Part shown: piece by piece, positions 1 through 52,858 of the stretch
How positions within the stretch are numbered: the first letter of the stretch is position 1
Layout: the number at the start of each line of letters is the position of its first letter
Source: Oscillospiraceae bacterium
GTDB taxonomy: Bacteria > Bacillota > Clostridia > Oscillospirales > Oscillospiraceae
Direction of reading: 5' to 3'
DNA: 64,000 nucleotides
Assembly: GCA_034927185.1 (NCBI GenBank)
Contig: JAYFQM010000032.1
Location: forward strand, 15,436 to 79,435
Notes under the pieces: model-generated
Told to the model about the DNA's origin: nothing
Database searches by the model: none
What the model saw: only the letters and a program-made list of their open reading frames with translations
Translations under genes and position numbers: made by a program

Positions 1-293
1 TCAAAGTCATCCGGCAGTCTGCCTGAGATCAGTTGATCGTCATTTGAATATACGGCTATGTAGGTGCCTGTCTTGACAAGGTCCATCCCGCTGCACGGAG
101 CATTAATTACACCGCCCGTACGCAGCAGCCGGGTTATTTCATCTGCTTGAGATATAAGAAGATTCTCGGCGCCGCGGTAGAGATGGCTTGAGATCACAAG
201 ATAGGTGATAGGCAAAACCGCAATAGAAACGACAAAAAGCGCGATTCCGTGCCAGAACATGATTTTTCGTCTGACGTTCAGCTTTTTCATCAT
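1..293 (-). CDS. sensor histidine kinase, N-terminal part only (gene continues beyond window start)
   Basis: The minus-strand frame is open to the window edge. It starts ATGATG at 293/290, overlapping the stop of the upstream response regulator. The translation MMKKLNVRRKIMFWHGIALFVVSIAVLPITYLVISS... is a TM helix typical of kinases partnered with OmpR-type regulators. The kinase core is not in the window. Confidence 0.5.
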   Translation of the reverse strand, partial: MMKKLNVRRKIMFWHGIALFVVSIAVLPITYLVISSHLYRGAENLLISQADEITRLLRTGGVINAPCSGMDLVKTGTYIAVYSNDDQLISGRLPDDF

Positions 294-961
294 GACTCCT
301 TGATTATATAGCCGCTGCCGCGAACCGTATAAATTAGCTTTTTTTCATGACCGTCGTCAATTTTCTCTCGTAAATAGCGAATGTAAACATCAATGATGTT
401 GGATGAGCAGTCAAAATCATAGTTCCAGACATGGTCGATAATCTGCGTCCTTGTCAGCAGGCGGTTTTTATTTCGGAGTAAATATTCAAGAATTGCAAAC
501 TCCTTGTGGGTCAGTTTGATTTCCTTTTCAGAGCGCTGGACCGTATGTGTTGTTAAATCCATGGTAAGATCCGCTAATGTAAGCACGTTTTTGCATATGG
601 AATTCTGTCGGCGCATAAGGGCGCGAATCCGAGCCATCAATTCCTCGAGCGAAAAGGGTTTGACCATATAGTCGTCGGCGCCTGAGTCAAGCCCATTGAC
701 CCGGTCCTTGACCGTATCTTTTGCTGTAAGCAAAAGAACAGGCGTCTGATCACCGCTGTTGCGCATATTCCTAAGTATTGTCAGCCCATCGATTCCGGGC
801 AAAATGATATCCAAAACAATGCAGTCATATTCGCTCAGAGAAATCAGCGACTCAGCGTCGGGACCGTTATCACAGATATCTACGCTGTATCCGCCCTTTT
901 CGATGTACTTTGCCGTCGTGGTCAGTATTAATTTATCGTCCTCAATCAGGAGCAGCTTCAT
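290..961 (-). CDS. OmpR/PhoB-family response regulator
   Basis: MKLLLIEDD start and receiver Asp in CIVLDIILPGIDG. C-terminal winged helix (LTHKEFAILEYLL ... IYTVRGSGY). The ORF-track start at 1054 is an unlikely extension; the ATG at 961 gives the canonical N-terminus. Confidence 0.9.
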   Translation of the reverse strand: MKLLLIEDDKLILTTTAKYIEKGGYSVDICDNGPDAESLISLSEYDCIVLDIILPGIDGLTILRNMRNSGDQTPVLLLTAKDTVKDRVNGLDSGADDYMVKPFSLEELMARIRALMRRQNSICKNVLTLADLTMDLTTHTVQRSEKEIKLTHKEFAILEYLLRNKNRLLTRTQIIDHVWNYDFDCSSNIIDVYIRYLREKIDDGHEKKLIYTVRGSGYIIKES

Positions 962-1164
962 ATACAGCCCTCTATCCGCCACATTTTTTATATAGAGATT
1001 ATTATTTTGCGCGTACATTGTCAATAAAAGAAATAAAATGCATAAAATTGGCAATAATTTTTGTCTATATTTAATCAGAATTTAATCTTTACATGATAAC
1101 ATAGATTAAGATATAATATATTTGCTCGTTTTTAAGGAGGAACAGAGTTTTCCTGTTTAATTTG

Positions 1165-1270
1165 AGCAATAAGTTACAACGAGAATAGCAAATTTACCGA
1201 AAGGTAAAGACGCAAAGCTATGGGGTCTAAGGTTTTCAACTATGACAGCCCGGTTGCCGAATTGTTTTAT
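1165..1270 (+). promoter_or_regulatory. c-di-GMP-I (GEMM) riboswitch aptamer
   Basis: The plus strand reads AUAGCAAAUUUACCGAAAGGUAAAGACGCAAAGCUAUGGGGUCUAAGG...GACAGCCCGGUUGCCGAA. It has GCAAA, a GAAA-capped P1b hairpin (UUUACC/GGUAAA), the GACGCAAAGC core and a 3' CCGGUUGCC, laid out like the Vc2 class-I aptamer. Recognised by eye and not scored with a covariance model. Confidence 0.75.
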
Positions 1271-1286
1271 AGCTGTTTTGTGCTAT

Positions 1287-1331
1287 AGCTCTGTTCGTGC
1301 GGCCGCGGGTTGCAGAACAGAGCTTTTTTTG
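1287..1331 (+). terminator. intrinsic terminator (expression platform of the GEMM riboswitch)
   Basis: Stem AGCTCTGTTC...GAACAGAGCT followed by TTTTTTTG. Confidence 0.75.
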
Positions 1332-1497
1332 TTCGGCAAAACAGGCGGACCATACAATGGATACTTTATGAAGCGATCCTTCTGCCGTCCGGGACGGTTT
1401 CCATCTATTCTCGCCTGTAACGGCAGGGCAAGGCCCGAGTACATAGATATTTTCACGACCCAGGAGACTCGCTCCTGAACATACTTCCCATTAATGA

Positions 1498-1530
1498 GCC
1501 CCCGAGATGTCTGGATCTCGGGGGCTTGTT
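1498..1530. terminator. GC-rich hairpin, probable bidirectional terminator
   Basis: GCCCCCGAGAT-GTCTGG-ATCTCGGGGGC followed by TTGTT on the plus strand. It lies 34 nt past the stop of the minus-strand MFS gene. Confidence 0.55.
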
Positions 1531-1558
1531 AAATATTAGGTCTTGTTCCCCCGCCTCA

Positions 1559-2992
1559 TCAGGCGTTTTCACGCTTCCTATCAATTTCGGTCGGAACCTT
1601 CCCCTTGACAAAAGAGGCCACCATAGCCGCAACGGCAATTGCGGCGGCAACAAGCGCCGTTATGTGCAGGGCAAATATAAAAGCGCTCCCCGAGAGAAGA
1701 TTACCCGTTTGCCCCTGAGAAGAGAAAAGCTCCTCTGCTTTTCTCTGGGAGTGCGAAAACAGCGAGCCGGAGACCGCAACGCCTAGCACCATCCCGATAT
1801 TGCGCATGGTCGCCAGCGTACCGGATGCGGTTCCTCTGTTTTTCAAAGGGACGCTGCCCATTATGGCGCTGTTATTGGGCGTCTGAAACATGCCGAAACC
1901 CGCGCCCGAAACAAGCATTGCGACGATAATATAGGTGTTCGGCGTTTCTGCCTTCAGGAAGCTCAGCATGTATAGGCCGCAGGCCAGAATGAGGGCGCCG
2001 GCTGAGCTTATATATCTGCTGTCGACGCGGTCAGACGCGCTTCCGCTGATAGGCGCGATAAGCATCGTGGCAAGCGGCATGGGCATATAAAGAAGCCCGC
2101 TTTGCATAGCCGTGTAGCCGCGAAGCGTCTGAAGATAAAAAGGCGTAAGAAATATCATAATGAATTCCGACATGTAGATGAAAACCGCGGCGGCGTTGCT
2201 CGCCGCAAAAACCCGGTTTTTAAAAAAGTCCATATCGAGCATAGGGAAGGGAAAGCGTTTTTCTCGAACGACAAAACAAGCGATCAAAAGGAAACCTGCA
2301 GCGACCGAGCCGATAAAAAGCGCCGGTGGTATCGAGTAATCGCCTGATATATCCAAGGGCAGCAGGATAAGAAGCAGCGCAAAGAATATAAGAGAACTGC
2401 CCGCAAAATCGAACGGGACAGGCTCTGTCTTTTTTTCTGAGGGAATGTTCTTTATGACCATTATTGCACCGAAAATCCCGATGGGAACATTGACAAAGAA
2501 TATGCTCTGCCAGCCCAGCAGCGTTGAAAGCGTACCGCCGAGAACAGGCCCCGCGCATAGGCCCAGAGCAACCGCAACAGCGGTTATGCTGAGTGCTTTT
2601 CCGCGGTTTTCAGGAGGCACGGCGTTAGTAATAATCGCGGGTCCCGTTGAATACAGCATACCGGCTCCGACAGCCTGAACGACCCTGAAGGCTATAAGCA
2701 GGCTGATATTTGCGGAAACCGCGCATAGAAGCGAGCCTACGGTAAAAATTACAAAGCCGGTCAGGTAGACTTTTTTGTGTCCGTAAAGGTCGGAAAGACG
2801 CCCGAAAGTAAGAAGCAGACTGCTGACTACCAGCAGATAGGCGGTTACTATCCATTCGACCATTGACATAGAAACGCCGAAGCTGTTTTTGATAAGCGGC
2901 AGTGCGAGATTGACTATGCTGGTATCAAGTGCGGACATAAAAGTCCCTATTCCAACCGTGAGAATTATAATTGCGGTTTTTCTGTCTTTCAT
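1559..2992 (-). CDS. MFS transporter, DHA2 (EmrB/QacA-like, 14-TMS) drug:H+ antiporter family
   Basis: 477 aa and highly hydrophobic. N-terminus LDTSIVNLALPLI, motif GRLSDLYGHKK, and about 14 predicted helices. Confidence 0.85.
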   Translation of the reverse strand: MKDRKTAIIILTVGIGTFMSALDTSIVNLALPLIKNSFGVSMSMVEWIVTAYLLVVSSLLLTFGRLSDLYGHKKVYLTGFVIFTVGSLLCAVSANISLLIAFRVVQAVGAGMLYSTGPAIITNAVPPENRGKALSITAVAVALGLCAGPVLGGTLSTLLGWQSIFFVNVPIGIFGAIMVIKNIPSEKKTEPVPFDFAGSSLIFFALLLILLPLDISGDYSIPPALFIGSVAAGFLLIACFVVREKRFPFPMLDMDFFKNRVFAASNAAAVFIYMSEFIMIFLTPFYLQTLRGYTAMQSGLLYMPMPLATMLIAPISGSASDRVDSRYISSAGALILACGLYMLSFLKAETPNTYIIVAMLVSGAGFGMFQTPNNSAIMGSVPLKNRGTASGTLATMRNIGMVLGVAVSGSLFSHSQRKAEELFSSQGQTGNLLSGSAFIFALHITALVAAAIAVAAMVASFVKGKVPTEIDRKRENA

Positions 2993-5890: not shown

Positions 5891-6634
5891 TCAGATTAAA
5901 CCGTGCGAGCGTATCCGGCTGAGGGCCGCTTCGTCCGCAACGACGGTAACGTCGGGATGCAGCTGCAGAATAGATGCCGGAACAAGCGGTGTAACGGGTC
6001 CAAAAAGGGCCTTCTCGAGAATTTCGGCCTTTCCGTCTCCGCTTACGACCATCAGTATCTTTTTTGCCCTCATGATGCTCTTGATTCCCATAGTGACCGC
6101 AAAGCGGGGCACGTCTTTGGGATTATCGAAAAACCTTGAGTTAGCGAGGATAGTCTCTTCCTTCAGCGCTACTCTGTGAGTCGTTTTGTCAAAGCTTTCG
6201 TTGGGCTCGTTGAACCCGATATGACCCGTGTTGCCCAGTCCGAGAAGCTGGAGGTCAATTCCGCCGAGCATGGTGATGGTCCTTTCATAATCAGCGCACT
6301 CCGCGGTTATATCTCTGGCAAGGCCGTTTGGAATATTAATGTTCTCTTCAGGTATATTAACATTGTCGAAAAAATTCGAATGCATATAATAGTGATAGCT
6401 CTGTGGGTGGCTGGGGTTTAGCCCGCAGTATTCGTCGAGGTTCACGGTGCGTACGCCCGAAAAATCCAGATCGCCCTTGTCGTACCATTCGATGAGCTGC
6501 TGGTATACGCCGACGGGAGTGGAGCCCGTCGCGAGGCCCAGAACGCTTCGAGGGTACAGAATGACCTGTGCCGAAATGATGTTGGCCGCTTTCCGGCTCA
6601 TGCTGCGATAGTCGGCGGCTTCAATTATTTTCAT
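5891..6634 (-). CDS. nagB: glucosamine-6-phosphate deaminase
   Basis: 247 aa. LGLATGSTP, GLGNTGHIGFNEP and other NagB hallmarks. Confidence 0.92.
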   Translation of the reverse strand: MKIIEAADYRSMSRKAANIISAQVILYPRSVLGLATGSTPVGVYQQLIEWYDKGDLDFSGVRTVNLDEYCGLNPSHPQSYHYYMHSNFFDNVNIPEENINIPNGLARDITAECADYERTITMLGGIDLQLLGLGNTGHIGFNEPNESFDKTTHRVALKEETILANSRFFDNPKDVPRFAVTMGIKSIMRAKKILMVVSGDGKAEILEKALFGPVTPLVPASILQLHPDVTVVADEAALSRIRSHGLI

Positions 6635-11013: not shown

Positions 11014-11910
11014 ATGGCTAAAACACCTGAAAAGAAAACTCTTGATAAGAAAACTCTGAGAAAATCCTTTAACAACTGGTTTTTCTGGAACGGCTGCTCA
11101 CAACAGGCAGAATCGATGCTAGGCATGGCTTTCGGCCAGTCAATGGCACCCGTTATAGACGAGCTCTATGACGAGAAGGAAGACAAGGCTGCCGGTCTCC
11201 GCAGGCATATAACCCTGTTTAACACAGAATCTCAGGTTGGCTCCGTCTGCAACGGTATCGCCATCGGCATGGAAGAGCAGCTCGCAAACGGCGTCGGCAC
11301 GCCCGAAGCGATTCAGGAGGCAAAGGTCGCTCTCATTGGCCCTACCTCGGCAATAGGCGATTCCCTCTGGGTTGCAACCATTATACCTCTGCTTCTCACT
11401 ATCTGCCTGTCAATTTCAAGTGCCCTGACAAATTCTGCGTGGGTCGGTCCTCTGATCTATATCATCGTATATCCTATCGGAACCTACCTGCTGAGCTGGA
11501 AGATATTCCAGCTAGGATATAAGGCCGGACTTGAAGGCGTTCAGAGATTCATGGTGTCGGGCCAGCTCGACAAGATTATAAGGGCCGTTACAATACTCGG
11601 CCTGCTGGTTGTAGGTGCGCTGACTGCAAGCTTTGTCACCTGCGCTCTTAACATCGACATCAAAACCGCCACAAAGGTTTTTGATGAGGCTACGCAGTCA
11701 TACATTGACGGCAGCATTTCCGTTTTCAATCTCGACAATCTGCTCAACACAGTATTCCCCAAAATTGTTCCACTGGCTCTGACCGTCTTTGTATACTGGC
11801 TGTATACGAAGAAGAACTGGAAGCCGATAGTCATCATGCTCCTCATCCTTGTGCTGGCTGCGGTTCTCACTGCCATCGGATATATTCCCGGAATCGGAGC
11901 ATTTGCCTGA
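11014..11910 (+). CDS. PTS mannose/fructose/sorbose family IID component
   Basis: N-terminus LTKKTL..SF..WFFWNG-like (KKTLRKSFNNWFFWNG) is typical of IID. The ATG at 11014 abuts the IIC stop (TGAGATG). Confidence 0.85.
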   Translation: MAKTPEKKTLDKKTLRKSFNNWFFWNGCSQQAESMLGMAFGQSMAPVIDELYDEKEDKAAGLRRHITLFNTESQVGSVCNGIAIGMEEQLANGVGTPEAIQEAKVALIGPTSAIGDSLWVATIIPLLLTICLSISSALTNSAWVGPLIYIIVYPIGTYLLSWKIFQLGYKAGLEGVQRFMVSGQLDKIIRAVTILGLLVVGALTASFVTCALNIDIKTATKVFDEATQSYIDGSISVFNLDNLLNTVFPKIVPLALTVFVYWLYTKKNWKPIVIMLLILVLAAVLTAIGYIPGIGAFA

Positions 11911-19280: not shown

Positions 19281-19954
19281 ACGTGCACCCGGGGGTATTC
19301 GTTACAAAGAAGATACATTGCGGGTTCGTCTTCCTCTATTAAAGTAAAGCGCTTTTGGGACTCATAAAAACGGTTGTCGGTGAGATCATCGTTGACCATG
19401 GAGACCTCCCATGCCAGGACCTTTCGGCCCTCGGCAGCGAACTGATGATATGTTCTGGGGCAGATAGTGATACTCTCTCCCGGTTTCAGATAAACCTTTT
19501 CCCCAGCAGGCACAAGGCACCTTCTGCCGTCAATGCGGGCGGTGACCTCGGTATCATCCAGTTCCCCTTCCGGCGTAGAATTCCAAAGCTGCATCATAAG
19601 AACACCGCCTCCGCGGTTTATTATATCCTCCATCTTGTACCGGTGGAAGTGGTTTGGAGAGAGCTGCCCAGGCTCGGAAACCAGCATTTTTTCCGCATAC
19701 GGCTTCGCATAATCCGGATTGCTCAGATTGCCGTTCCTTATCGTGAAAAGCAGCAGCCCTATACTGCTAAAATCACCGCGTCCGTAGTCTGTCACATCCC
19801 AGCCGAGCATGTTCTCGCGAATCTCGTCATATTCGCTGCCTTTCGACGCCCAATCCCCGGCGGTCCAGTAGGCGAAGGGTGGTATGTGAACCTTAATATC
19901 TCCGAGCCATTCAATTGTTTTCTCAATCAGCGCGTTAATCTGCGAGCGTTTCAT
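19277..19954 (-). CDS. D-lyxose/D-mannose family sugar isomerase (cupin)
   Basis: MKRSQINALIE..., GWDVTDYGRGDF, YAEKML..., HFHRYKMEDIINRGGG closely parallel the E. coli O157 D-lyxose isomerase. GGAGG lies 8 nt upstream of the ATG at 19954. Confidence 0.85.
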   Translation of the reverse strand: MKRSQINALIEKTIEWLGDIKVHIPPFAYWTAGDWASKGSEYDEIRENMLGWDVTDYGRGDFSSIGLLLFTIRNGNLSNPDYAKPYAEKMLVSEPGQLSPNHFHRYKMEDIINRGGGVLMMQLWNSTPEGELDDTEVTARIDGRRCLVPAGEKVYLKPGESITICPRTYHQFAAEGRKVLAWEVSMVNDDLTDNRFYESQKRFTLIEEDEPAMYLLCNEYPRVHV

Positions 19955-25576: not shown

Positions 25577-26665
25577 TTACTTATCGGATTTTTTATAAAA
25601 CGGCAGGGGGACTATTTCAGCCTCGATTCTTCGTCCGCGCACCTCGGCCGAAACAGAAGTTCCGGCTGCGCTGCGGGCCTTGTCGATAAGCGCCATCGCG
25701 TAGGCTCCGTTTAGGTAGGGCAGGAAGGTGCCGCTTGTGGTTTCGCCAATCTTTTCTTCCCCGATAAAAACTGGACAATGCTCGCGGATTATGCCCCTAC
25801 CGGTGACCTTCAGCCCCACACGGGTGATTTTCGGCTCTCCTTTTTCGATGAGAGCGCTTTTTCCTATGAAATCATCTTTTTGAAGCTTCACTCCAAAGCC
25901 GAGTCCCGTTTCAAGCGGACTGACGGTGTCGTCCATTTCGTGCCCGTAGAGCGGCATTGCAGCCTCAAGGCGAAGCGTGTCACGCGCGCCGAGTCCACAG
26001 GGTATCAGCCCAAAGTCCTTTCCCGCGTCAAGCAAAGCCCTCCAGAGCTTTTCGGCCTGATCGGTTTCGCAGTATAGCTCATATCCGAATTCTCCCGTAT
26101 AACCAGTCTGAGAAATAAGGCACTTGATCCCCGCGACGCTGCAATCATCAAGAAAGGTATAGTATTTTTCCGGAAGATTGTTTATATCCGTAAGCTTAGA
26201 GAGTATTTCCTTTGACTTGGGACCCTGAAGAGCAATCTGGGCAATCGAATCGGAAATGTCCTCAAGTGCCACCTGCCCGAAGAGCTGCTTTTTCATCCAC
26301 TCGACGTCTTTTTCACGGTTAGAGGCGTTGACGACCACAAGGTATCTGTCCTGATCCATGCGGTAGATCAGCAGATCGTCAATAACTCCGCCGTCCGGAT
26401 TGCACATTGGGCTGTATCTGACCCTGCCGTCCGCCATGCCTGTGAAGTCGTTCGTAAAAAGGAAATTGATATTCCTGAGCGCGTCGCGTCCGCTGATTAT
26501 AACCTCGCCCATGTGAGAGACGTCGAAAAGCCCGGCTTTTGTACGTACCGCCATGTGTTCCTCGATTATGTCTGTATACTGAACAGGCATAAGATAGCCC
26601 GCAAAGGGAACCATCGAGGCTCCGGCGCTGATGTGACATTCATAAAGCGGAGTTTTCTTTTCCAT
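25577..26665 (-). CDS. gcvT: aminomethyltransferase (T protein)
   Basis: About 362 aa. GLFDVSHMGE. The ATG at 26665 is preferred over the TTG at 26671. Confidence 0.95.
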   Translation of the reverse strand: MEKKTPLYECHISAGASMVPFAGYLMPVQYTDIIEEHMAVRTKAGLFDVSHMGEVIISGRDALRNINFLFTNDFTGMADGRVRYSPMCNPDGGVIDDLLIYRMDQDRYLVVVNASNREKDVEWMKKQLFGQVALEDISDSIAQIALQGPKSKEILSKLTDINNLPEKYYTFLDDCSVAGIKCLISQTGYTGEFGYELYCETDQAEKLWRALLDAGKDFGLIPCGLGARDTLRLEAAMPLYGHEMDDTVSPLETGLGFGVKLQKDDFIGKSALIEKGEPKITRVGLKVTGRGIIREHCPVFIGEEKIGETTSGTFLPYLNGAYAMALIDKARSAAGTSVSAEVRGRRIEAEIVPLPFYKKSDK

Positions 26666-26684
26666 AGACAATCCAGCTTTCTTT

Positions 26685-40670: not shown

Positions 40671-40883
40671 CCCGATCAGGGTATAACAAGCTCAGGTACT
40701 TGTCAATGACAAGCGTCGGTTTGTTTCAAATATTAAGCCGTTATTTGTCGATTCCGTAAATTTTTGTCCGTTAGGTATATTGATTACTTATTGAGTTTGT
40801 GTAATTATTAATGATAAGAAGCTTGCTTTAATCAAAGCAGAATTAACGTGTTGAATTATCTCCGATCTTGAAGGGTGCGGACT

Positions 40884-43004
40884 ATGAAATTAAAGAAAAA
40901 CAATACGAATATTGAAAGCTCTCTGAAAAGCATATTGGATTCCTTGGAATCAGATGTGGTTATTGTCCGGAACGAGAGCTGCGACGTTTTATTTATGAAT
41001 GAAGCCGCCCGCAAGCGGGTTGACGGAGAGGATCTTTCATCCGCGGGCTACAGAAAAGGATATACATATCTTTATCCGGGACTCTGTGAAAGCTGCCCAC
41101 ACAAGGCGGATTCCAAGGACGAGTATGCCGTATTTGATATTAAAGACAGAAATGGACGTATTTTTTCCGCAACCCGAAAAACTGTTGAATGGATTGACGG
41201 CAAATCCGCAACGGCTTTATTCCTGCGTGACGTCGATGACGAACGCAGTCTAAAAAACAGAATGTATAATCTTGCCTATTACGACCAGCTGACGGGAGTT
41301 CCAAACAGACAAAAGCTCAAGGAGGACTTTGAAGCCGCGCTGAAAGATAACAAGAACGATAGATATTGTGGAATCGTAGCCATTATTGATCTTGATAATT
41401 TTAAAGTTATCAACGATAATTACGGTCACGGTACGGGCGATGAAATGCTGCTGAGGATCACGGCATACCTTGAGGGCAACGACGATTTCAAGGGCCACTT
41501 ATACAGGCTGGGCGGAGACGAGTTTGTTTTGTTCTATAAAGAGAAGCTGTCGAAATTTGAGGACCAGACAGCCGTCAGGACGTATTTTAAAGAGCTTCTC
41601 CAGAAGTCTCTGCTTTCTTACACGATGCCGAATATAGAAGCCAAATGCACTCTCAGCATGGGCGTTGCGATATTTCCCCCGCATGGAGAAACCTTATCTG
41701 AGCTTTTGCGCAAAGCGGATATCGCGCTTTATAAAGCAAAGTCCGACGGACGTAACCGGGTAGTGCTTTTTGAAGATGAATATGATGCCGCAAGAAAATT
41801 CAAGGACATGTATATAAACATGCAGCCGATTTTGATAAAAAACGGCAACACCTATGGATACGAGCTTCTTGACAGCGATAACAGCGAAAAAGAGGACGAC
41901 CACACGTTTAGCCTTTCCCAGATAGACCGTACTCTGGACGCGCTTGAGCTCAATGATATTAAAGATGGTACAAAGTATTTTATATCCTTCACAAAACAGT
42001 TTTTCAACAAAACAGTTTTGAAAAACCTGCCCAAAAGCAAATTCGTGATTCAAATCAGCGCCTCCGACAGATATGCGGAAGAACATATGGCTTTATATAA
42101 ACAGCTAAAAGCAAACGGCTACCTGTTGTTGTTGTCGAATATTACCAGCGGCATTTTGGACAGAAACTTACTTGACCTTGCCGATTATTGCAAGTTTGCG
42201 CCCGGGGGGATGAGTGCGGGCGAACAGATTAATCTGATTGCTGCGAACCCGTCTAAAACCTTCATTGCGACGGACGTATCGACAACTGAGGAATTTGAAA
42301 TTGCCAAGCGAAGAGGATTCACTCTGTTTCAGGGATACTTCTTTAATCAGCAGACGGTGGTCAAGAAGGAAAAGGATATTGAACCCCTGAAGGCCAACTA
42401 TTTTCGGCTGCTGCAGCTGACAAGTACGGATAATTATGTGGATTTCAATGAGATAAGCGCTGTGATCTCTTCGGATGTGGCATTATCGTATAAATTGCTC
42501 CGCCTGCTGAACTCCGCCTCCGTTGGACTGCGCACCAGAGTAACCTCCATTCTTACCGCGCTGACCTTTTTGGGGGAAGAAAGCCTGAAACAGTGGATAT
42601 CGGTTCTGGCTCTGCGCGGCGTTTCCGATGAGAAGCCGCTGGAACTTGTGAGAATGTCCCTGATAAGGGCGCGATTCGGTGAAAGCTTATCGTGCTGCTT
42701 TAAGCCTCCGATGGATACAAAGAACGTATTTATGGTGGGGCTATTGTCTCTTCTGCATATTGCACTTGATAAAACGAAGGAAGAGATGCTGGATGAAATT
42801 CCCGTTGCGGACAAGATCCGGCAGTCCCTTCTGGGAGACGACGGCCCATACTCAGAACTATTAAAGTTTTTTGAATCCTACGAACATGCTGATTGGAGTG
42901 AAATTTCGCGTTTTTCCGAAAAACATGAAATTGGCTGCTATGCGATCAACAATGCATATGTAAGTGCTGTTAAATGGTGCAACGATTTGATTAACGCATA
43001 TTGA
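40884..43004 (+). CDS. sensor (PAS-like) - GGDEF - degenerate EAL-like - HDOD protein
   Basis: YDQLTGVPNR...NDNYGHGTGDEML...LGGDEFVLF is an intact GGDEF domain. The EAL-like region YGYELLDS...FISFT...VIQIS...LLLSNI...CKF...IATDVST...FQGYFF has lost most metal and catalytic residues. HDOD: DVALSYKLLRLLNSASVGLRTRVTSILTALTFLGEESLKQW. The ATG at 40884 is preferred over the GTG at 40875. Confidence 0.88.
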   Translation: MKLKKNNTNIESSLKSILDSLESDVVIVRNESCDVLFMNEAARKRVDGEDLSSAGYRKGYTYLYPGLCESCPHKADSKDEYAVFDIKDRNGRIFSATRKTVEWIDGKSATALFLRDVDDERSLKNRMYNLAYYDQLTGVPNRQKLKEDFEAALKDNKNDRYCGIVAIIDLDNFKVINDNYGHGTGDEMLLRITAYLEGNDDFKGHLYRLGGDEFVLFYKEKLSKFEDQTAVRTYFKELLQKSLLSYTMPNIEAKCTLSMGVAIFPPHGETLSELLRKADIALYKAKSDGRNRVVLFEDEYDAARKFKDMYINMQPILIKNGNTYGYELLDSDNSEKEDDHTFSLSQIDRTLDALELNDIKDGTKYFISFTKQFFNKTVLKNLPKSKFVIQISASDRYAEEHMALYKQLKANGYLLLLSNITSGILDRNLLDLADYCKFAPGGMSAGEQINLIAANPSKTFIATDVSTTEEFEIAKRRGFTLFQGYFFNQQTVVKKEKDIEPLKANYFRLLQLTSTDNYVDFNEISAVISSDVALSYKLLRLLNSASVGLRTRVTSILTALTFLGEESLKQWISVLALRGVSDEKPLELVRMSLIRARFGESLSCCFKPPMDTKNVFMVGLLSLLHIALDKTKEEMLDEIPVADKIRQSLLGDDGPYSELLKFFESYEHADWSEISRFSEKHEIGCYAINNAYVSAVKWCNDLINAY

Positions 43005-44405: not shown

Positions 44406-46430
44406 TCAAGTTGCAAGCCTGAATTGTCCGACAAGGCTTTTTAACACTTCGGCCTGACTTGAAAGCTCCTCGCTTGCTGCGGCACTTTCCTCGCTTGTTG
44501 CAGAGTTCATCTGAACTACGGAGGAGACCTGCTCGATGCCAATCGAAACTTGATTAATTGCGGCTGCCTGCTCCTGAGCCTGTTCGGATATCTCATCGAT
44601 CAGGACTACAATCTCCGAAGCTTTTTTAGCAACTTCCACAAAACCCGTACTTGTGTTGCTCACAAGCTGAGAACCCTTTTCAACAGCTTCGATGGAGCTT
44701 TCGATGAGGAGAGTGGTGTTCTTAGCAGCCTCCGCGGATTTTTGCGATAAATTACGAACCTCATCGGCAACCACCGCAAAGCCCTTACCGGCAGCTCCGG
44801 CTCTGGCTGCCTCAACAGCGGCATTGAGCGCGAGGATGTTGGTCTGGAAAGCGATATCGTCAATTGTTTTGATGACCTTGCCGATGTTTTTGGAGGTTGA
44901 CGAAATCTTGTCCATCGCCTGGCGGGCGAGTTCCATGTCGTTTACGCTGCTCTGCATAACGGCTTCGGTTGACGTTGTCAGTTCCTTTGCTTTCTCTGCA
45001 TCTTCGGCGTTTCTCGTAACGCGCTGCGATATATCGGCTATTGAAGCCGAAAGCTCCTGAACACTGCTTGCCTGCTCGGTGGCACCCTGAGCCAGAGCCT
45101 GAGAACCGGAGCTTACCTGCGAGGCTCCAGCCGATACCTGTTCGGAAACCTGAAGTATGTCCAGGAAAGAGTCGGAAAGGCCGCTCTTCAAGGTTTTCAG
45201 GGAGGTGAGGATATTTGCGTAATCTCCTATATACAAGCCAGTATCGTGTGAATTGACGTCAAAGTTTCCTCCGGAGAACTCCGACAGGATAAAGTCTATA
45301 TCTTTAATTATCGATCCTGTTTGGCTCAAAGTATTTAGAATGGAACTTTTTAGAACGACAAATTCGGAAGAGGCAGCCGCAAGGTCGGGAAGCGGCGATA
45401 AAACATCGCCTGCTGCCAGCTGTGATAGCCTTTTAATGTATACTTTCAACGGATCAACGACTCTGTTTGCAATATAGATACAGCCGAATACGCCCACGAG
45501 AATGATTATGACAAGCAAAGCTGCGGAGCCATAGATGGAGGTCATCACTCCTCTGGTAAAGTCCGATACGGGCGCGGTCAGACAAATGATCCAACCATCG
45601 CTGCCTTCAACAGTGGAAGCGCAGAGAAATTTCCTGACGCCCTGGTACTGGTACTGATTAAAGGAGACCTCTCCGGATAGTGCGCTATTGAACGAATCCA
45701 CCAAAGGCTGCAAAGCCGGCTCGCTTTCCGCCAATTCAAAAATGTTTTTTCCATCAGAAATATAAGCTGTGTCAATATAATCTACAAAATCTCCGTTTTT
45801 ATCAAGTATGTATGCGTAACCGTTTTTGCTTATGTTCATACTGGATATGGCCTGACCGATCAGAGTCTGAGGCACGGTAAAGCAAACTACTCCCGTAACC
45901 GAGGTCCCTTTCATACCATTTGTCCAAATCGGCGTGGAGAGAGTCATGGCGAGCTCGCCCGATTTTTCATCAAGGTATGGGGAGGTAATGTATGTTTCGC
46001 CATCCTTGGCGGGAGAGAAGTACTCAGCCGAGGAGTAGTCTTTGCCGGTCTTTATTTCTTTGCCGCTGGCAGATAAAATGTATCCGTCAAGTAAGTCATA
46101 TTCTTTGACCTTTTTTGTTACAAGAGCTGCCTTTTCCGCATCGGTAGCCTCTGAACTGTACATAACGCTGTTGGACGCGATTTCTTCCATTAGTACCGAT
46201 ATTCTGCCTAGCTTATTGGAAACGGCGTCACCCGCGATTCCGGCGGCGGAAATCATCGAATCCTCAAGACTGGAAATGGTGCTGCGATAGCCCATATATA
46301 CAGTAAAAACCGCCAAAACAACGGAAGCCGTACATATAAAGATAATTATTGGCACAGTTATGGTCATACGCAGGCTATTTTTCCTTTTTTCCTTTAATGC
46401 TGTCAGGCCTTTTAAATCATTTTTTTCCAT
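44406..46430 (-). CDS. methyl-accepting chemotaxis protein with large Cache-type extracellular sensor
   Basis: About 270-aa extracytoplasmic domain between two TM helices (double-Cache size and pattern), HAMP, and signalling tip [36 protein letters not shown]. The ATG at 46430 follows GGGGGG. Confidence 0.92.
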
Positions 46431-46719
46431 TTGGTACCCCCCAATTTTATATAATTTCTCAATAGAGTTTTGCTTGCGGTACACAATCGGATCTCAAGCA
46501 AAGAATACCAAAGCTTTGCGGGCTTTATGCTCGTTTCTGTGTAATCTTTCTTTCACTAGATTTATGCTATGATTTTTGCTTACCACAAGAAGCTAACTAA
46601 GAATGTTTATTAAATATTATTAAGCTCACATGCTCAGAAAAATTGTGTACCCTCCAAAACAAAAGAGAATACCCGGGACTCTAAAAGAACCTCGGGTATA
46701 TTATCGTGTTGCAGGTAAG

Positions 46720-50548: not shown

Positions 50549-52600
50549 TCAGTCGTTTCTGAGCGTGTTGACGTCCATAATCAGGCTGATGCTTCCGTCT
50601 CCGAGTACGCTGCAACCGGAAAGACCCTGGTTTTTCAGGTTGTATTTTTTTAGGAACACAGGGAAGGGCTTCACCACAACCTGATATTCGCCCAGAAGCT
50701 CATCGGCAAACAGACAGTATCCGGAGTTGTTGCTGTCCACCTGAATCATGATGCCGTCCATAATATTTTCGCAGCCGTTTTCGATATCGAACAGTCTCTT
50801 CAAGCGCGCTATTGGATAGCACTCCCCGCGAAGCAGTATCATTTCCGTTCCGTCGGTGTTGTGGATGATCTGAGATTCGTCCGCAACCTTGAACGACTGC
50901 CTGATTGCCGTAATGGGAAGCGTGAAAACGGTATCTCCCACGGCTATGTTCATGCCGTCTACGATTGCGAGCGTTAACGGGATCTTGATCGTGAAGGTAG
51001 TGCCTTTGCCCTTCTCACTGCTGATGGAGATGGTTCCGGCAACCTGATCTATGTTTTTCTTGACAACATCCATGCCTACGCCGCGCCCAGAGAACTCGGT
51101 AACGCTTGTGTTGGTGGAAAATCCGGGCAGCAGTATGAGGTTGAATATTTCTTTTTCCGAGTACGAGGCTTCGGGTTTTTGCAGCATTCCGTTCGCCTTG
51201 GCCTTGGCGAGAAGCTTTTCCGTATCGAGACCCGCCCCGTCGTCGGAAATTGTTATCAGTATTTCGCCGCCCGTGTTCTTCGCCGAAAGCACAATTGACC
51301 CTGTCTCCGGCTTGCCGAGAGAAATACGCTCTGCGGGCGTTTCAATAGCGTGATCCATAGAGTTGCGGATCATATGCATAAGAGGATCAACAATCGCGTC
51401 ATTTATTGTCTTGTCAACCTCGGTTTCTCCGCCTTCGGTGATGAGCTCTGCCTTTTTGCCGAGCTTTTTCCCCATATCGCGGACTATTCTGTCCATTTTA
51501 TGGAAAGTTCCCAGTAGCGGAACCATTCGGATAGACATAACGATATCCTGAAGCTCGTCCGTCAGCTTACGTAGCTCCCGGACAGATTTCGTAAAATTGT
51601 CAAGGCGAAGGCCGAGAATGTCCGGATTTCTGGCGACCATGGACTCAGCAGTTACGATTTCGCCTACAAGATCCATGAGATGATCGAGCTTTATCTGGTT
51701 GACGCTGATAAGGCTCTGCTTCACGCCGCCGGCAGATGCCTGCGCCTGGTTTTTGATCGTGTCTATCTTGGTTTCAAGAACCGCCTGAGAGGTATCGCCT
51801 TCTGCGGCTGAATATTCTTCAGCGCTTTCGTTAGGCTTGCTGGGTTCCTCGGTGAGCACTTCGTATGATTTTATGCTCAGTGCGCTTTCGATCACTTTCA
51901 GCACCATTTCAAGTGAATGGGATGGCTTGCAGATAATTTTCAAACCGTTCCGGATTATTTCCGCAGAAAGGGCGGCGTCGGATTCCGGATTGGCCGGTAC
52001 GGAGCTCAGTTCGTCGCAGTAGGGGCTGAGCTGGCCCAAAAGCATGAATGCCCGGACATTTTCCATCCCGCAGTCATTTTCGAAAAACACCAGAATCGAT
52101 ACAGAGCCTTCGCCGGATACAGAGCCTGACTCGTCGCGAGAATCGTTGGGCTCTGCAGCGCCGACCGCGGTCTCCGCGCTCTGCTTGCCCTTAATGATGG
52201 CGGCCTGCTCCTCAAGCTGAGCGACGATTTCCGAAGCGTCGCCCTCGACATACTCGCTGTCCTGGAGCTTCTCCAGCTCTCGTTTGAAGAAGTCCGATGC
52301 CTTAAAGACAAGGTCAAATATAGAGTTGAAAACAAGCTGCAGGCTGGACGGGTTTTCCCTCAGTATGAAAAACACATCTTCGACAGAATGAGCGAGTGTT
52401 GAAATCGTGTTGAAGCTCATCATCGCGGCGGAGCCTTTTATCGTGTGCGTTATACGGAATATGCTGTTTATGTTCTCTTCCGTTATGCTCTTGGCCCGTT
52501 CAGAGTCAAGGAGTATTTCGTCGAGCTGCTCAAGCATCTCATTCGTCTCGTGAATAAAAGCTTCAAGCAGAGACTCCATTACAAAATCATCGGTACTCAT
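50549..52600 (-). CDS. cheA: chemotaxis histidine kinase CheA
   Basis: Hpt HTIKGSAAMM, HATPase N box (HMIRNSMDHAIE), G boxes (DDGAGLD, GRGVGMDVV) and a C-terminal CheW-like domain. The ATG at 52600 follows AAGGTGA; the ORF-track start at 52672 is probably an extension. Confidence 0.95.
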   Translation of the reverse strand: MSTDDFVMESLLEAFIHETNEMLEQLDEILLDSERAKSITEENINSIFRITHTIKGSAAMMSFNTISTLAHSVEDVFFILRENPSSLQLVFNSIFDLVFKASDFFKRELEKLQDSEYVEGDASEIVAQLEEQAAIIKGKQSAETAVGAAEPNDSRDESGSVSGEGSVSILVFFENDCGMENVRAFMLLGQLSPYCDELSSVPANPESDAALSAEIIRNGLKIICKPSHSLEMVLKVIESALSIKSYEVLTEEPSKPNESAEEYSAAEGDTSQAVLETKIDTIKNQAQASAGGVKQSLISVNQIKLDHLMDLVGEIVTAESMVARNPDILGLRLDNFTKSVRELRKLTDELQDIVMSIRMVPLLGTFHKMDRIVRDMGKKLGKKAELITEGGETEVDKTINDAIVDPLMHMIRNSMDHAIETPAERISLGKPETGSIVLSAKNTGGEILITISDDGAGLDTEKLLAKAKANGMLQKPEASYSEKEIFNLILLPGFSTNTSVTEFSGRGVGMDVVKKNIDQVAGTISISSEKGKGTTFTIKIPLTLAIVDGMNIAVGDTVFTLPITAIRQSFKVADESQIIHNTDGTEMILLRGECYPIARLKRLFDIENGCENIMDGIMIQVDSNNSGYCLFADELLGEYQVVVKPFPVFLKKYNLKNQGLSGCSVLGDGSISLIMDVNTLRND

Positions 52601-52858
52601 AAAATCACCTTTCCATAGTAGCTGTCGCCTGGTATAGTTAGATTTATAATATTTATTCCATAATTCGGCCAAAAGGAAAGAGGAATTATTAATTATCCTC
52701 TTTTAAAATTGACAAAAATGTGCAGACAAAAGTAAAAAGTGTTATTTGTTTAATTCAAAGCATTGTATTTTCCTCAAATCGGTAGATAAATATAAATGTG
52801 GAATAGTATTTAAAAACAACTGAAAACTAGGTAGATTCCGGGAAAGGGGGAAAGCAGG

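Follow-up and report, generated by a model that had tools for sequence, protein, structure and literature searches.

A class-I cyclic di-GMP (c-di-GMP) riboswitch near the start of a 64,000-nucleotide stretch of DNA from an Oscillospiraceae bacterium (GenBank assembly GCA_034927185.1, contig JAYFQM010000032.1, positions 15,436 to 79,435 of the forward strand; hereafter 'the window') has very probably lost its 8-10 kb Tad/Flp pilus operon by deletion, and would be a deletion scar rather than a new type of regulator. No gene stands behind this riboswitch because the Tad/Flp operon that follows it in related genomes has been deleted here. What is left of the leader would be the intact 5' control region of a deleted Tad/Flp (type IVc) operon: a direct repeat, a promoter, the aptamer, its expression platform and the start of the 5' untranslated region (UTR).

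An earlier note on the same DNA had described the element as an 'orphan riboswitch' and had offered, unranked, four readings of it: a c-di-GMP-controlled small RNA (sRNA), a switchable antisense transcript into the 3' end of a convergent MFS transporter gene, the regulator of a micro-ORF (open reading frame), and the relic of a deleted gene. The last of these is borne out by a comparison of the locus with its relatives, in which the regulated operon is intact and both of whose operon ends are still to be found in the window; the other three are not supported. 'Orphan' remains apt as a description, without the novelty that the word implied.

The lost operon and its remnants

The convergent transporter gene (EmrB/QacA-type MFS; positions 1559-2992, minus strand, a 477-amino-acid ORF) served as the synteny anchor for this comparison. 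A scan of species-representative genomes with its protein product identified orthologues that are 82-86% identical in three loci, L042 (86%), L002 (85%) and L001 (82%, on a contig that ends early), all of them from uncultured Oscillospiraceae/Bacillota metagenome-assembled genomes (MAGs). In L042 and L002 a homologous aptamer lies 8.5 and 9.6 kb, respectively, beyond the MFS gene, on the strand that converges with it, and the intervening DNA carries 10-11 co-directional ORFs. The Pfam domains found in these ORFs, in operon order from the prepilin peptidase gene onwards, are those of a Tad/Flp pilus locus: Peptidase_A24, TadE, RcpC/CpaB, a Response_reg-ParA-type ATPase (TadZ-like), T2SSE (CpaF/TadA), two T2SSF proteins (TadB/TadC) and DUF192. 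A 59-amino-acid Flp pilin with a G/MVEYGLI processing motif is encoded after the peptidase gene, and the last protein of the operon (364-369 amino acids) has no Pfam match and, judged by eye, the look of a coiled coil. The L002 operon contains an extra TadG-like gene. In both loci the operon ends at the same GC-rich hairpin that is found in the window, convergent with the same MFS gene.

A search of metagenomes for a 40-nt aptamer pattern added three more loci, among them L082 (likewise an Oscillospiraceae/Bacillota MAG), where a histidine kinase and response regulator pair is followed by the riboswitch (81.2 bits) and then by Tad genes. L042, L002 and L082 are the three closest relatives that carry this riboswitch, and in each of them the response regulator gene and the riboswitch precede the Tad/Flp operon. 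Genes in fact follow all seven homologous aptamers in the relatives: the Tad operons of these three loci, a gene for an SLH protein in L083 and a response regulator gene behind one of the two copies in L081, the other of which faces an ORF that runs off a short contig. Neither a riboswitch nor Tad genes were found near the next MFS homologues beyond the L042/L002/L001 clade, P0006 (78%) and P0008 (73%), which have unrelated neighbours, and an Rfam scan of loci L003, L004, L006 and L008 found no riboswitch there; these loci give no clue to the date of the loss. Judged from these comparisons, the ancestral layout is a response regulator gene, the riboswitch and the Tad/Flp operon, the last being convergent with the MFS gene in the closest clade of the window.

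When positions 900-1700 of the window were compared with L042, L002 and L001 (blastn), two blocks were matched and nothing between them. The first (908-1333) corresponds to the start of the relatives' response regulator gene, the spacer, the riboswitch and its terminator; the second (1445-1700) to the operon end together with the MFS 3' end. For the DNA that separates the two blocks, only alignments limited to the two ends of the operon's coding region are informative, and a comparison of positions 1334-1444 with the operon interior of the same three loci gave a score of 21, within the range of shuffled sequences (18-27).

Such end-limited alignments place a remnant on either side of a junction. 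On the left, positions 1332-1356 (plus strand, as are all of the remnants) are what is left of the 5'UTR, with a degraded Shine-Dalgarno (SD) region (AGGCGGAC in the window versus GGGTGA in the relatives, by alignment to L042 and L002), and positions 1357-1400 are what is left of the first ~14 codons of the prepilin peptidase (Peptidase_A24) gene, as identified by local and multiple alignment (window ATGGATACTTTATGAAGCGATCCTTCTGC, L002 ATGAATATTTATCTTAAAGCTATGTTTCTGC). The original start codon is kept at 1357, and indels break the frame, which now reads ATG GAT ACT TTA TGA. This left remnant shows 74-78% substitution identity with 5-8 gap positions; in local alignments the gene start of L002 scored better than 300 of 300 shuffled sequences, and that of L042 was equalled by 9 of 300. 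On the right, positions 1419-1478 are an in-frame match to the final 19 codons of the last operon gene together with its stop codon (NGRARPEYIDIFTTQETRS in the window, TDRMSPKYEDTITAQETCS in L002 and TDGLKLDFDNFTAQETCS in L001, each ending at the stop; DNA identity 76-80%), and positions 1479-1531 contain the 3'UTR and terminal hairpin of the former operon, 89-92% identical to L042, L002 and L001. The hairpin itself (1497-1526) is a perfect GC-rich stem of 12 bp and lies 33 nt beyond the stop codon of the MFS gene; it is the second GC-rich hairpin that the earlier note had placed before the convergent MFS 3' end. Between the two remnants lie some 18 nt (1401-1418), the deletion junction, that can be assigned to neither side.

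A single deletion of ~8.4-9.5 kb, starting near codon 15 of the first gene and stopping 19 codons short of the end of the last, would account for this arrangement. Of the Tad coding sequence, the window retains ~14 codons from the peptidase gene and 19 from the last gene: ten proteins of the L042 Tad operon gave no tblastn match in the 64-kb window at E <= 1e-3 (the 59-amino-acid Flp pilin was not among the queries), and the set of genes that defines a Tad/Flp locus (CpaF/TadA, TadB/C, CpaB, TadZ, peptidase and pilin) is missing from it. At points of L042 that match the breakpoints of the window, near-identical octamers occur (19818-19835 and 11590-11610, minus strand; GCCGCTTT in the first gene and GCCGTTTT in the last). 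These hint at a microhomology-mediated deletion, but L002 does not have them, and no claim is made here on the mechanism.

The ~170 nt that follow the terminator had been regarded as apparently non-coding. They do lack a gene, but they are not anonymous DNA, since both ends of the deleted operon are recognisable in them. The sole candidate ORF, of 36 codons (ATG at 1368 to TGA at 1478, without an SD, just as had been described), lies in frame inside a 78-amino-acid ORF (1242-1478). Its first 17 codons consist of the out-of-frame start of the peptidase gene and the junction, and its last 19 are the tail of the former last gene; it is absent from every relative, since its halves lie there on either side of 8-10 kb of genes. 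This ORF joins two deletion scars in a chimera and has neither the ribosome-binding site nor the conservation in relatives that characterise a small protein gene. No credible plus-strand coding sequence follows before ~8.8 kb, in agreement with an earlier estimate of more than 7 kb.

Aptamer, promoter and expression platform

The aptamer matches the c-di-GMP-I (GEMM-I) family RF01051 at positions 1177-1261 of the plus strand with 77.8 bits (E = 1.4e-13; cmscan, Rfam 15), over model positions 1-87 of 87 and well beyond the gathering score of 35 bits, so that the earlier assignment to class I is upheld. The GCAAA core, the GAAA-capped hairpin, GACGCAAAGC and the 3' strand ACAGCC...GCC all fall on consensus positions with high posterior probability, and the element shares 93-98% identity with its counterparts in L042 and L002 (78.3 and 78.1 bits). 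A score over the full model, the conserved core and a terminator/antiterminator platform are all present; by sequence, structure and platform the element is a genuine member of RF01051, and it fails only as a cis-regulator, with no controlled gene downstream in the window and one in each of L042, L002 and L082. Binding of c-di-GMP by the aptamer is predicted. A low-threshold Rfam scan of positions 1000-1700 gave otherwise chance matches only (His_leader at 26.7 bits, cutoff 49; STnc480 at 22.6 bits, cutoff 72), and no known sRNA family was found in the stretch downstream of the riboswitch.

Upstream of the aptamer stands a promoter of the sigma-70 type (TTTACA-18-TATAAT, positions 1088-1117, plus strand), which agrees with the consensus at 11 of 12 positions and has a predicted transcription start near 1124. 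Its -10 hexamer (1112-1117) is a perfect TATAAT; the hexamers aligned with it in the operon-bearing relatives L042, L002 and L082 are weaker (TATAAA-, CATAAA- and TAGAAA-like).

Downstream of the aptamer comes an intrinsic terminator at positions 1287-1330 (plus strand; hairpin energy -23.7 kcal/mol), whose stem (1287/1288-1323/1324) comprises 9-10 outer pairs and a 7-pair inner stem, all of them Watson-Crick, and whose T7 tract occupies 1324-1330. The earlier description of a 10-bp stem followed by U7 was accurate, even though a simple terminator scanner made no call for the stem, on account of its loop rule. The helix is kept in the homologous leaders, with five pairs changed on both sides. 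Between aptamer and terminator, the minimum free energy (MFE) fold places a spacer hairpin, termed H (TATAGC-N8-GCTATA, 1268-1287, plus strand), for which 64.6% of cells are paired across the homologues, with one compensatory pair.

A second, mutually exclusive pairing spans positions 1246-1312 (plus strand): the 3' strand of the aptamer (1246-1261) can form 16 pairs with the 5' arm and loop of the terminator (1294-1312), thereby enclosing hairpin H in an antiterminator. In an alignment of eight leaders (the window, L042, L002, L082, two from L083 and two from L081), 86.7% of the cells of this helix are standard pairs, versus 30-43% when the partner strand is slid by 1-3 columns, and two of its pairs show compensatory changes at the place where the L081 aptamers have GGCTGCC or GGCCGCC. 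The antiterminator is the unconstrained MFE structure in L002 and L082, and it is also that of the nascent RNA of the window before the 3' arm of the terminator has been made (-40.5 kcal/mol). Terminator-constrained energies for the second L083 leader and for both L081 leaders, in which the alignment register differs, are unreliable and were left unused. The alternative pairing of terminator and antiterminator is conserved. A further pairing of 9 bp (UUGCCGAAU with GUUCGGCAA), which encloses the expression platform in the MFE structure of the window, is absent from the relatives and was taken to be due to chance.

The two structures share a strand, and their use as a switch would be as follows. 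Without c-di-GMP, the 3' strand of the aptamer would pair with the 5' arm of the terminator, and the resulting antiterminator would permit read-through. With c-di-GMP, the ligand would lock the shared strand into the aptamer, so that formation of the terminator would be favoured and transcription would stop at ~1330. Structure and covariation thereby suggest an OFF switch, in which c-di-GMP causes termination, and the class-I c-di-GMP riboswitches of C. difficile are transcriptional OFF switches as well (PMC11477304). The promoter would today give either a terminated riboswitch RNA of ~205 nt or a read-through RNA of ~400 nt, both non-coding, the latter ending at the old operon hairpin (1497-1526), short of the MFS gene.

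Age of the loss and competing explanations

At 69 aptamer columns on which all seven homologues agree, the window has no change of its own, and where the distal stem of its aptamer has changed, from C-G to U-A, the double change keeps the pairing. By our own calculation, zero changes at 69 sites limit neutral divergence since the loss of constraint to less than ~4% per site (95%), a bound that a recent deletion would easily satisfy. DNA divergence among the window, L042 and L002 is ~20%. The remnants of the operon ends, although they carry indels, have a substitution identity of 74-80%, versus 70-74% between functional orthologues. Since the aptamer is undecayed, and since the remnants show no excess of substitutions over functional orthologues, a deletion that would be recent relative to the split from the relatives is favoured.

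Several points weigh against the deletion of a once-regulated operon as a complete account. The control region shows no decay (the aptamer, a fully paired terminator and a perfect TATAAT), while the remnant of the first gene has frame-breaking indels and a degraded SD; a recent deletion would explain this contrast, but so would continued selection on the RNA. The collections that were searched hold no relative closer than ~80% DNA identity by which the loss could be dated (after the identical MFS protein of the source MAG itself, the next best has 85% identity). The sequence comes from a MAG, and the apparent absence of Tad genes covers its 64-kb window only. An OFF response to c-di-GMP, as suggested by folding and covariation, would moreover be counter-intuitive for an adhesive pilus.

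The first of these points bears on the possibility that the promoter, aptamer and terminator were exapted as a unit after the operon was lost, and now produce a gene-less RNA that binds c-di-GMP, acting as a buffer or sponge or as a trans-acting sRNA of c-di-GMP-dependent length. Such a role would explain why promoter, aptamer, antiterminator and terminator are intact beside a frame-broken remnant, and genes for c-di-GMP turnover, such as that for a GGDEF-EAL-HDOD protein (40875-43004), are present in the window. It has precedents in the merRNA of Bdellovibrio, an abundant gene-less c-di-GMP riboswitch RNA (PMC3627812), and in the 'orphan' c-di-GMP-I riboswitch between CD2517 and CD2517.1 of C. 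difficile (PMC11477304), both of which share with the window element a c-di-GMP-I aptamer, a promoter and terminator of their own and the lack of a downstream coding sequence. In the window, however, the gene-less state has a visible cause, an operon deletion with both of its scars, and it is confined to one MAG: every relative that has the aptamer has genes behind it, so that the conserved gene-less arrangement of a stand-alone riboswitch RNA (of the merRNA, EutX or SreA type) is found at none of the seven aptamers in the relatives. Zero changes in the aptamer, moreover, are easily reconciled with a recent deletion, and the substitution divergence of the remnants does not exceed that between functional orthologues. 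An exapted RNA is accordingly judged unlikely, and the sRNA reading of the earlier note is unsupported; the unit is most likely a vestige without a regulated target.

The remaining explanations are weaker. That the gap is an artefact (a misjoin in assembly or binning), or a deletion variant in a population most of whose members still have the operon, deserves thought for a MAG with no second assembly of its species in the collections searched. A misjoin would, however, leave clean sequence on both sides, and here both remnants have diverged in a lineage-specific manner, the left one with indels as well, the junction contains 18 nt that belong to neither side, and the flanks are collinear with three relatives, all of which makes this explanation very improbable. 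An antisense transcript into the MFS 3' end, switchable by c-di-GMP, is given a slightly smaller chance still. The two transcription units do converge, and the U-tract of the hairpin at 1497-1526 is weak on the plus strand (CTTGTTAAATATT), so that some read-through is conceivable, but two terminators stand between the promoter and the MFS stop codon, and the second of them is the operon's own 3' hairpin, in the position that it has in the relatives and with flanks that are, like the hairpin, 89-92% identical to the conserved end of their Tad operons. Since the hairpin is an inherited operon end, any antisense leak past it would be a holdover from the operon rather than a new function.

An ordinary cis-riboswitch for the 36-codon ORF could point to an ATG-to-TGA frame past the terminator and on the right strand, but the composition of that frame from two gene remnants, its missing SD and its absence in all relatives effectively refute this idea, which retains hardly any credence, and with it falls the micro-ORF reading. 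It might finally be supposed that the gene-less arrangement is ancestral and that the relatives gained their Tad operon by insertion between riboswitch and MFS gene. The bare pattern of presence and absence would allow this, and nothing more speaks for it; the window keeps the start codon and first codons of the first gene and, from the last one, the final 19 codons with the stop, and the more distant L082 also has the response regulator gene, riboswitch and Tad genes in order. Insertion is refuted by these coding remnants, and its probability is close to nil.

The adjoining regulator, related systems and significance

Divergent from the riboswitch promoter lies a gene for an OmpR-family response regulator (290-964, minus strand; Pfam Response_reg and Trans_reg_C), followed by a histidine kinase gene that runs off the start of the window. 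The regulator is 81.6% identical to the one that adjoins the riboswitch in L042, and 73% identical to that of L082. Between the regulator gene and the promoter, touching the -35 hexamer, is a direct repeat with an 11-bp period (TTTAATC-N4-TTTAATC, 1070-1087, plus strand), recognised by alignment of four lineages: the window, L042, L002 and L082 all have it unchanged, in a spacer that is otherwise 71-79% identical. The motif occurs once in the 64-kb window, versus 0.04 occurrences expected by chance, and in a set of 87 loci its only occurrences are at the homologous site in L002, L042 and L082. The repeat is a putative binding site of the adjoining OmpR-type regulator, and its 11-bp spacing fits the OmpR family.

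The relatives show further arrangements of the same aptamer lineage. In L083, two complete c-di-GMP-I units stand in tandem (560-645 and 756-841, minus strand; 80.7 and 80.3 bits), 196 nt apart and each with its own terminator, upstream of a gene for a signal-peptide protein with SLH domains; their aptamers are ~93% identical to that of the window. In L081, a divergent pair (402-487, minus strand; 793-878, plus strand) occupies a single intergenic region, and the plus-strand copy (86 bits) immediately precedes the gene for a response regulator homologue (54% identity), so that in this lineage the regulator itself would be riboswitch-controlled. L082 also has a NiCo riboswitch (RF02683, 64.4 bits; 6240-6343, minus strand) near its kinase-regulator pair.

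Elsewhere in the window, c-di-GMP signalling and chemotaxis genes are represented by the GGDEF-HDOD protein mentioned above (40875-43004), whose EAL domain is degenerate, by a dCache methyl-accepting chemotaxis protein (44406-46484) and by CheA (50549-52672), so that both kinds of gene are present in the organism. A tandem glycine riboswitch (RF00504; 26716-26892, minus strand; 66.3 and 36.1 bits) lies upstream of a minus-strand ORF (25577-26671) and further minus-strand ORFs, in a layout that looks ordinary.

Regulatory relics of gene loss include the 5' leaders that outlast a pseudogenised or deleted operon, and the element described here, an intact cis-element beside truncated, frame-broken remnants, belongs to that category without any substantive difference. 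As a riboswitch, it resembles the RF01051 OFF switches of Clostridia, such as Cd1 before the flagellar operon of C. difficile, in its full-length aptamer, its GAAA tetraloop hairpin, its terminator platform with a conserved antiterminator and its probable OFF logic (PMC11477304); it differs from Cd1 in that it has no regulated gene, and in that the unit regulated in its relatives is a Tad/Flp operon and not flagella. C. difficile also has a c-di-GMP-II riboswitch upstream of its type IV pilus cluster (PMC11477304), and the relatives are alike in placing, within Clostridia, a pilus locus of the type IV family behind a riboswitch in the 5' leader. The switch of C. difficile, however, is of class II, turns expression ON and precedes a type IVa-like locus, whereas that of the relatives is of class I, would turn expression OFF and precedes a Tad/Flp (type IVc) locus, an operon that in the window is gone.

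The locus is a well-bounded case of a riboswitch stranded by the deletion of its operon, and as it stands it matters little in itself, beyond the caution that a gene-less riboswitch should be compared with its relatives before a role as an sRNA is proposed. If the orphan were maintained and expressed, it would document a first step from a cis-riboswitch to a free-standing c-di-GMP RNA of the kind proposed for merRNA. Two by-products of the comparison concern the family at large. The same aptamer lineage has been reused, in tandem and in divergent pairs, before an SLH protein gene and a regulator gene; and in related uncultured Oscillospiraceae a Tad/Flp operon is placed under the control of a class-I c-di-GMP riboswitch, which appears to be an OFF switch, beside a conserved putative OmpR-type site. 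If the direct repeat is indeed the site of the response regulator, the Tad operon of these relatives would be under dual control, by a two-component system and by c-di-GMP.

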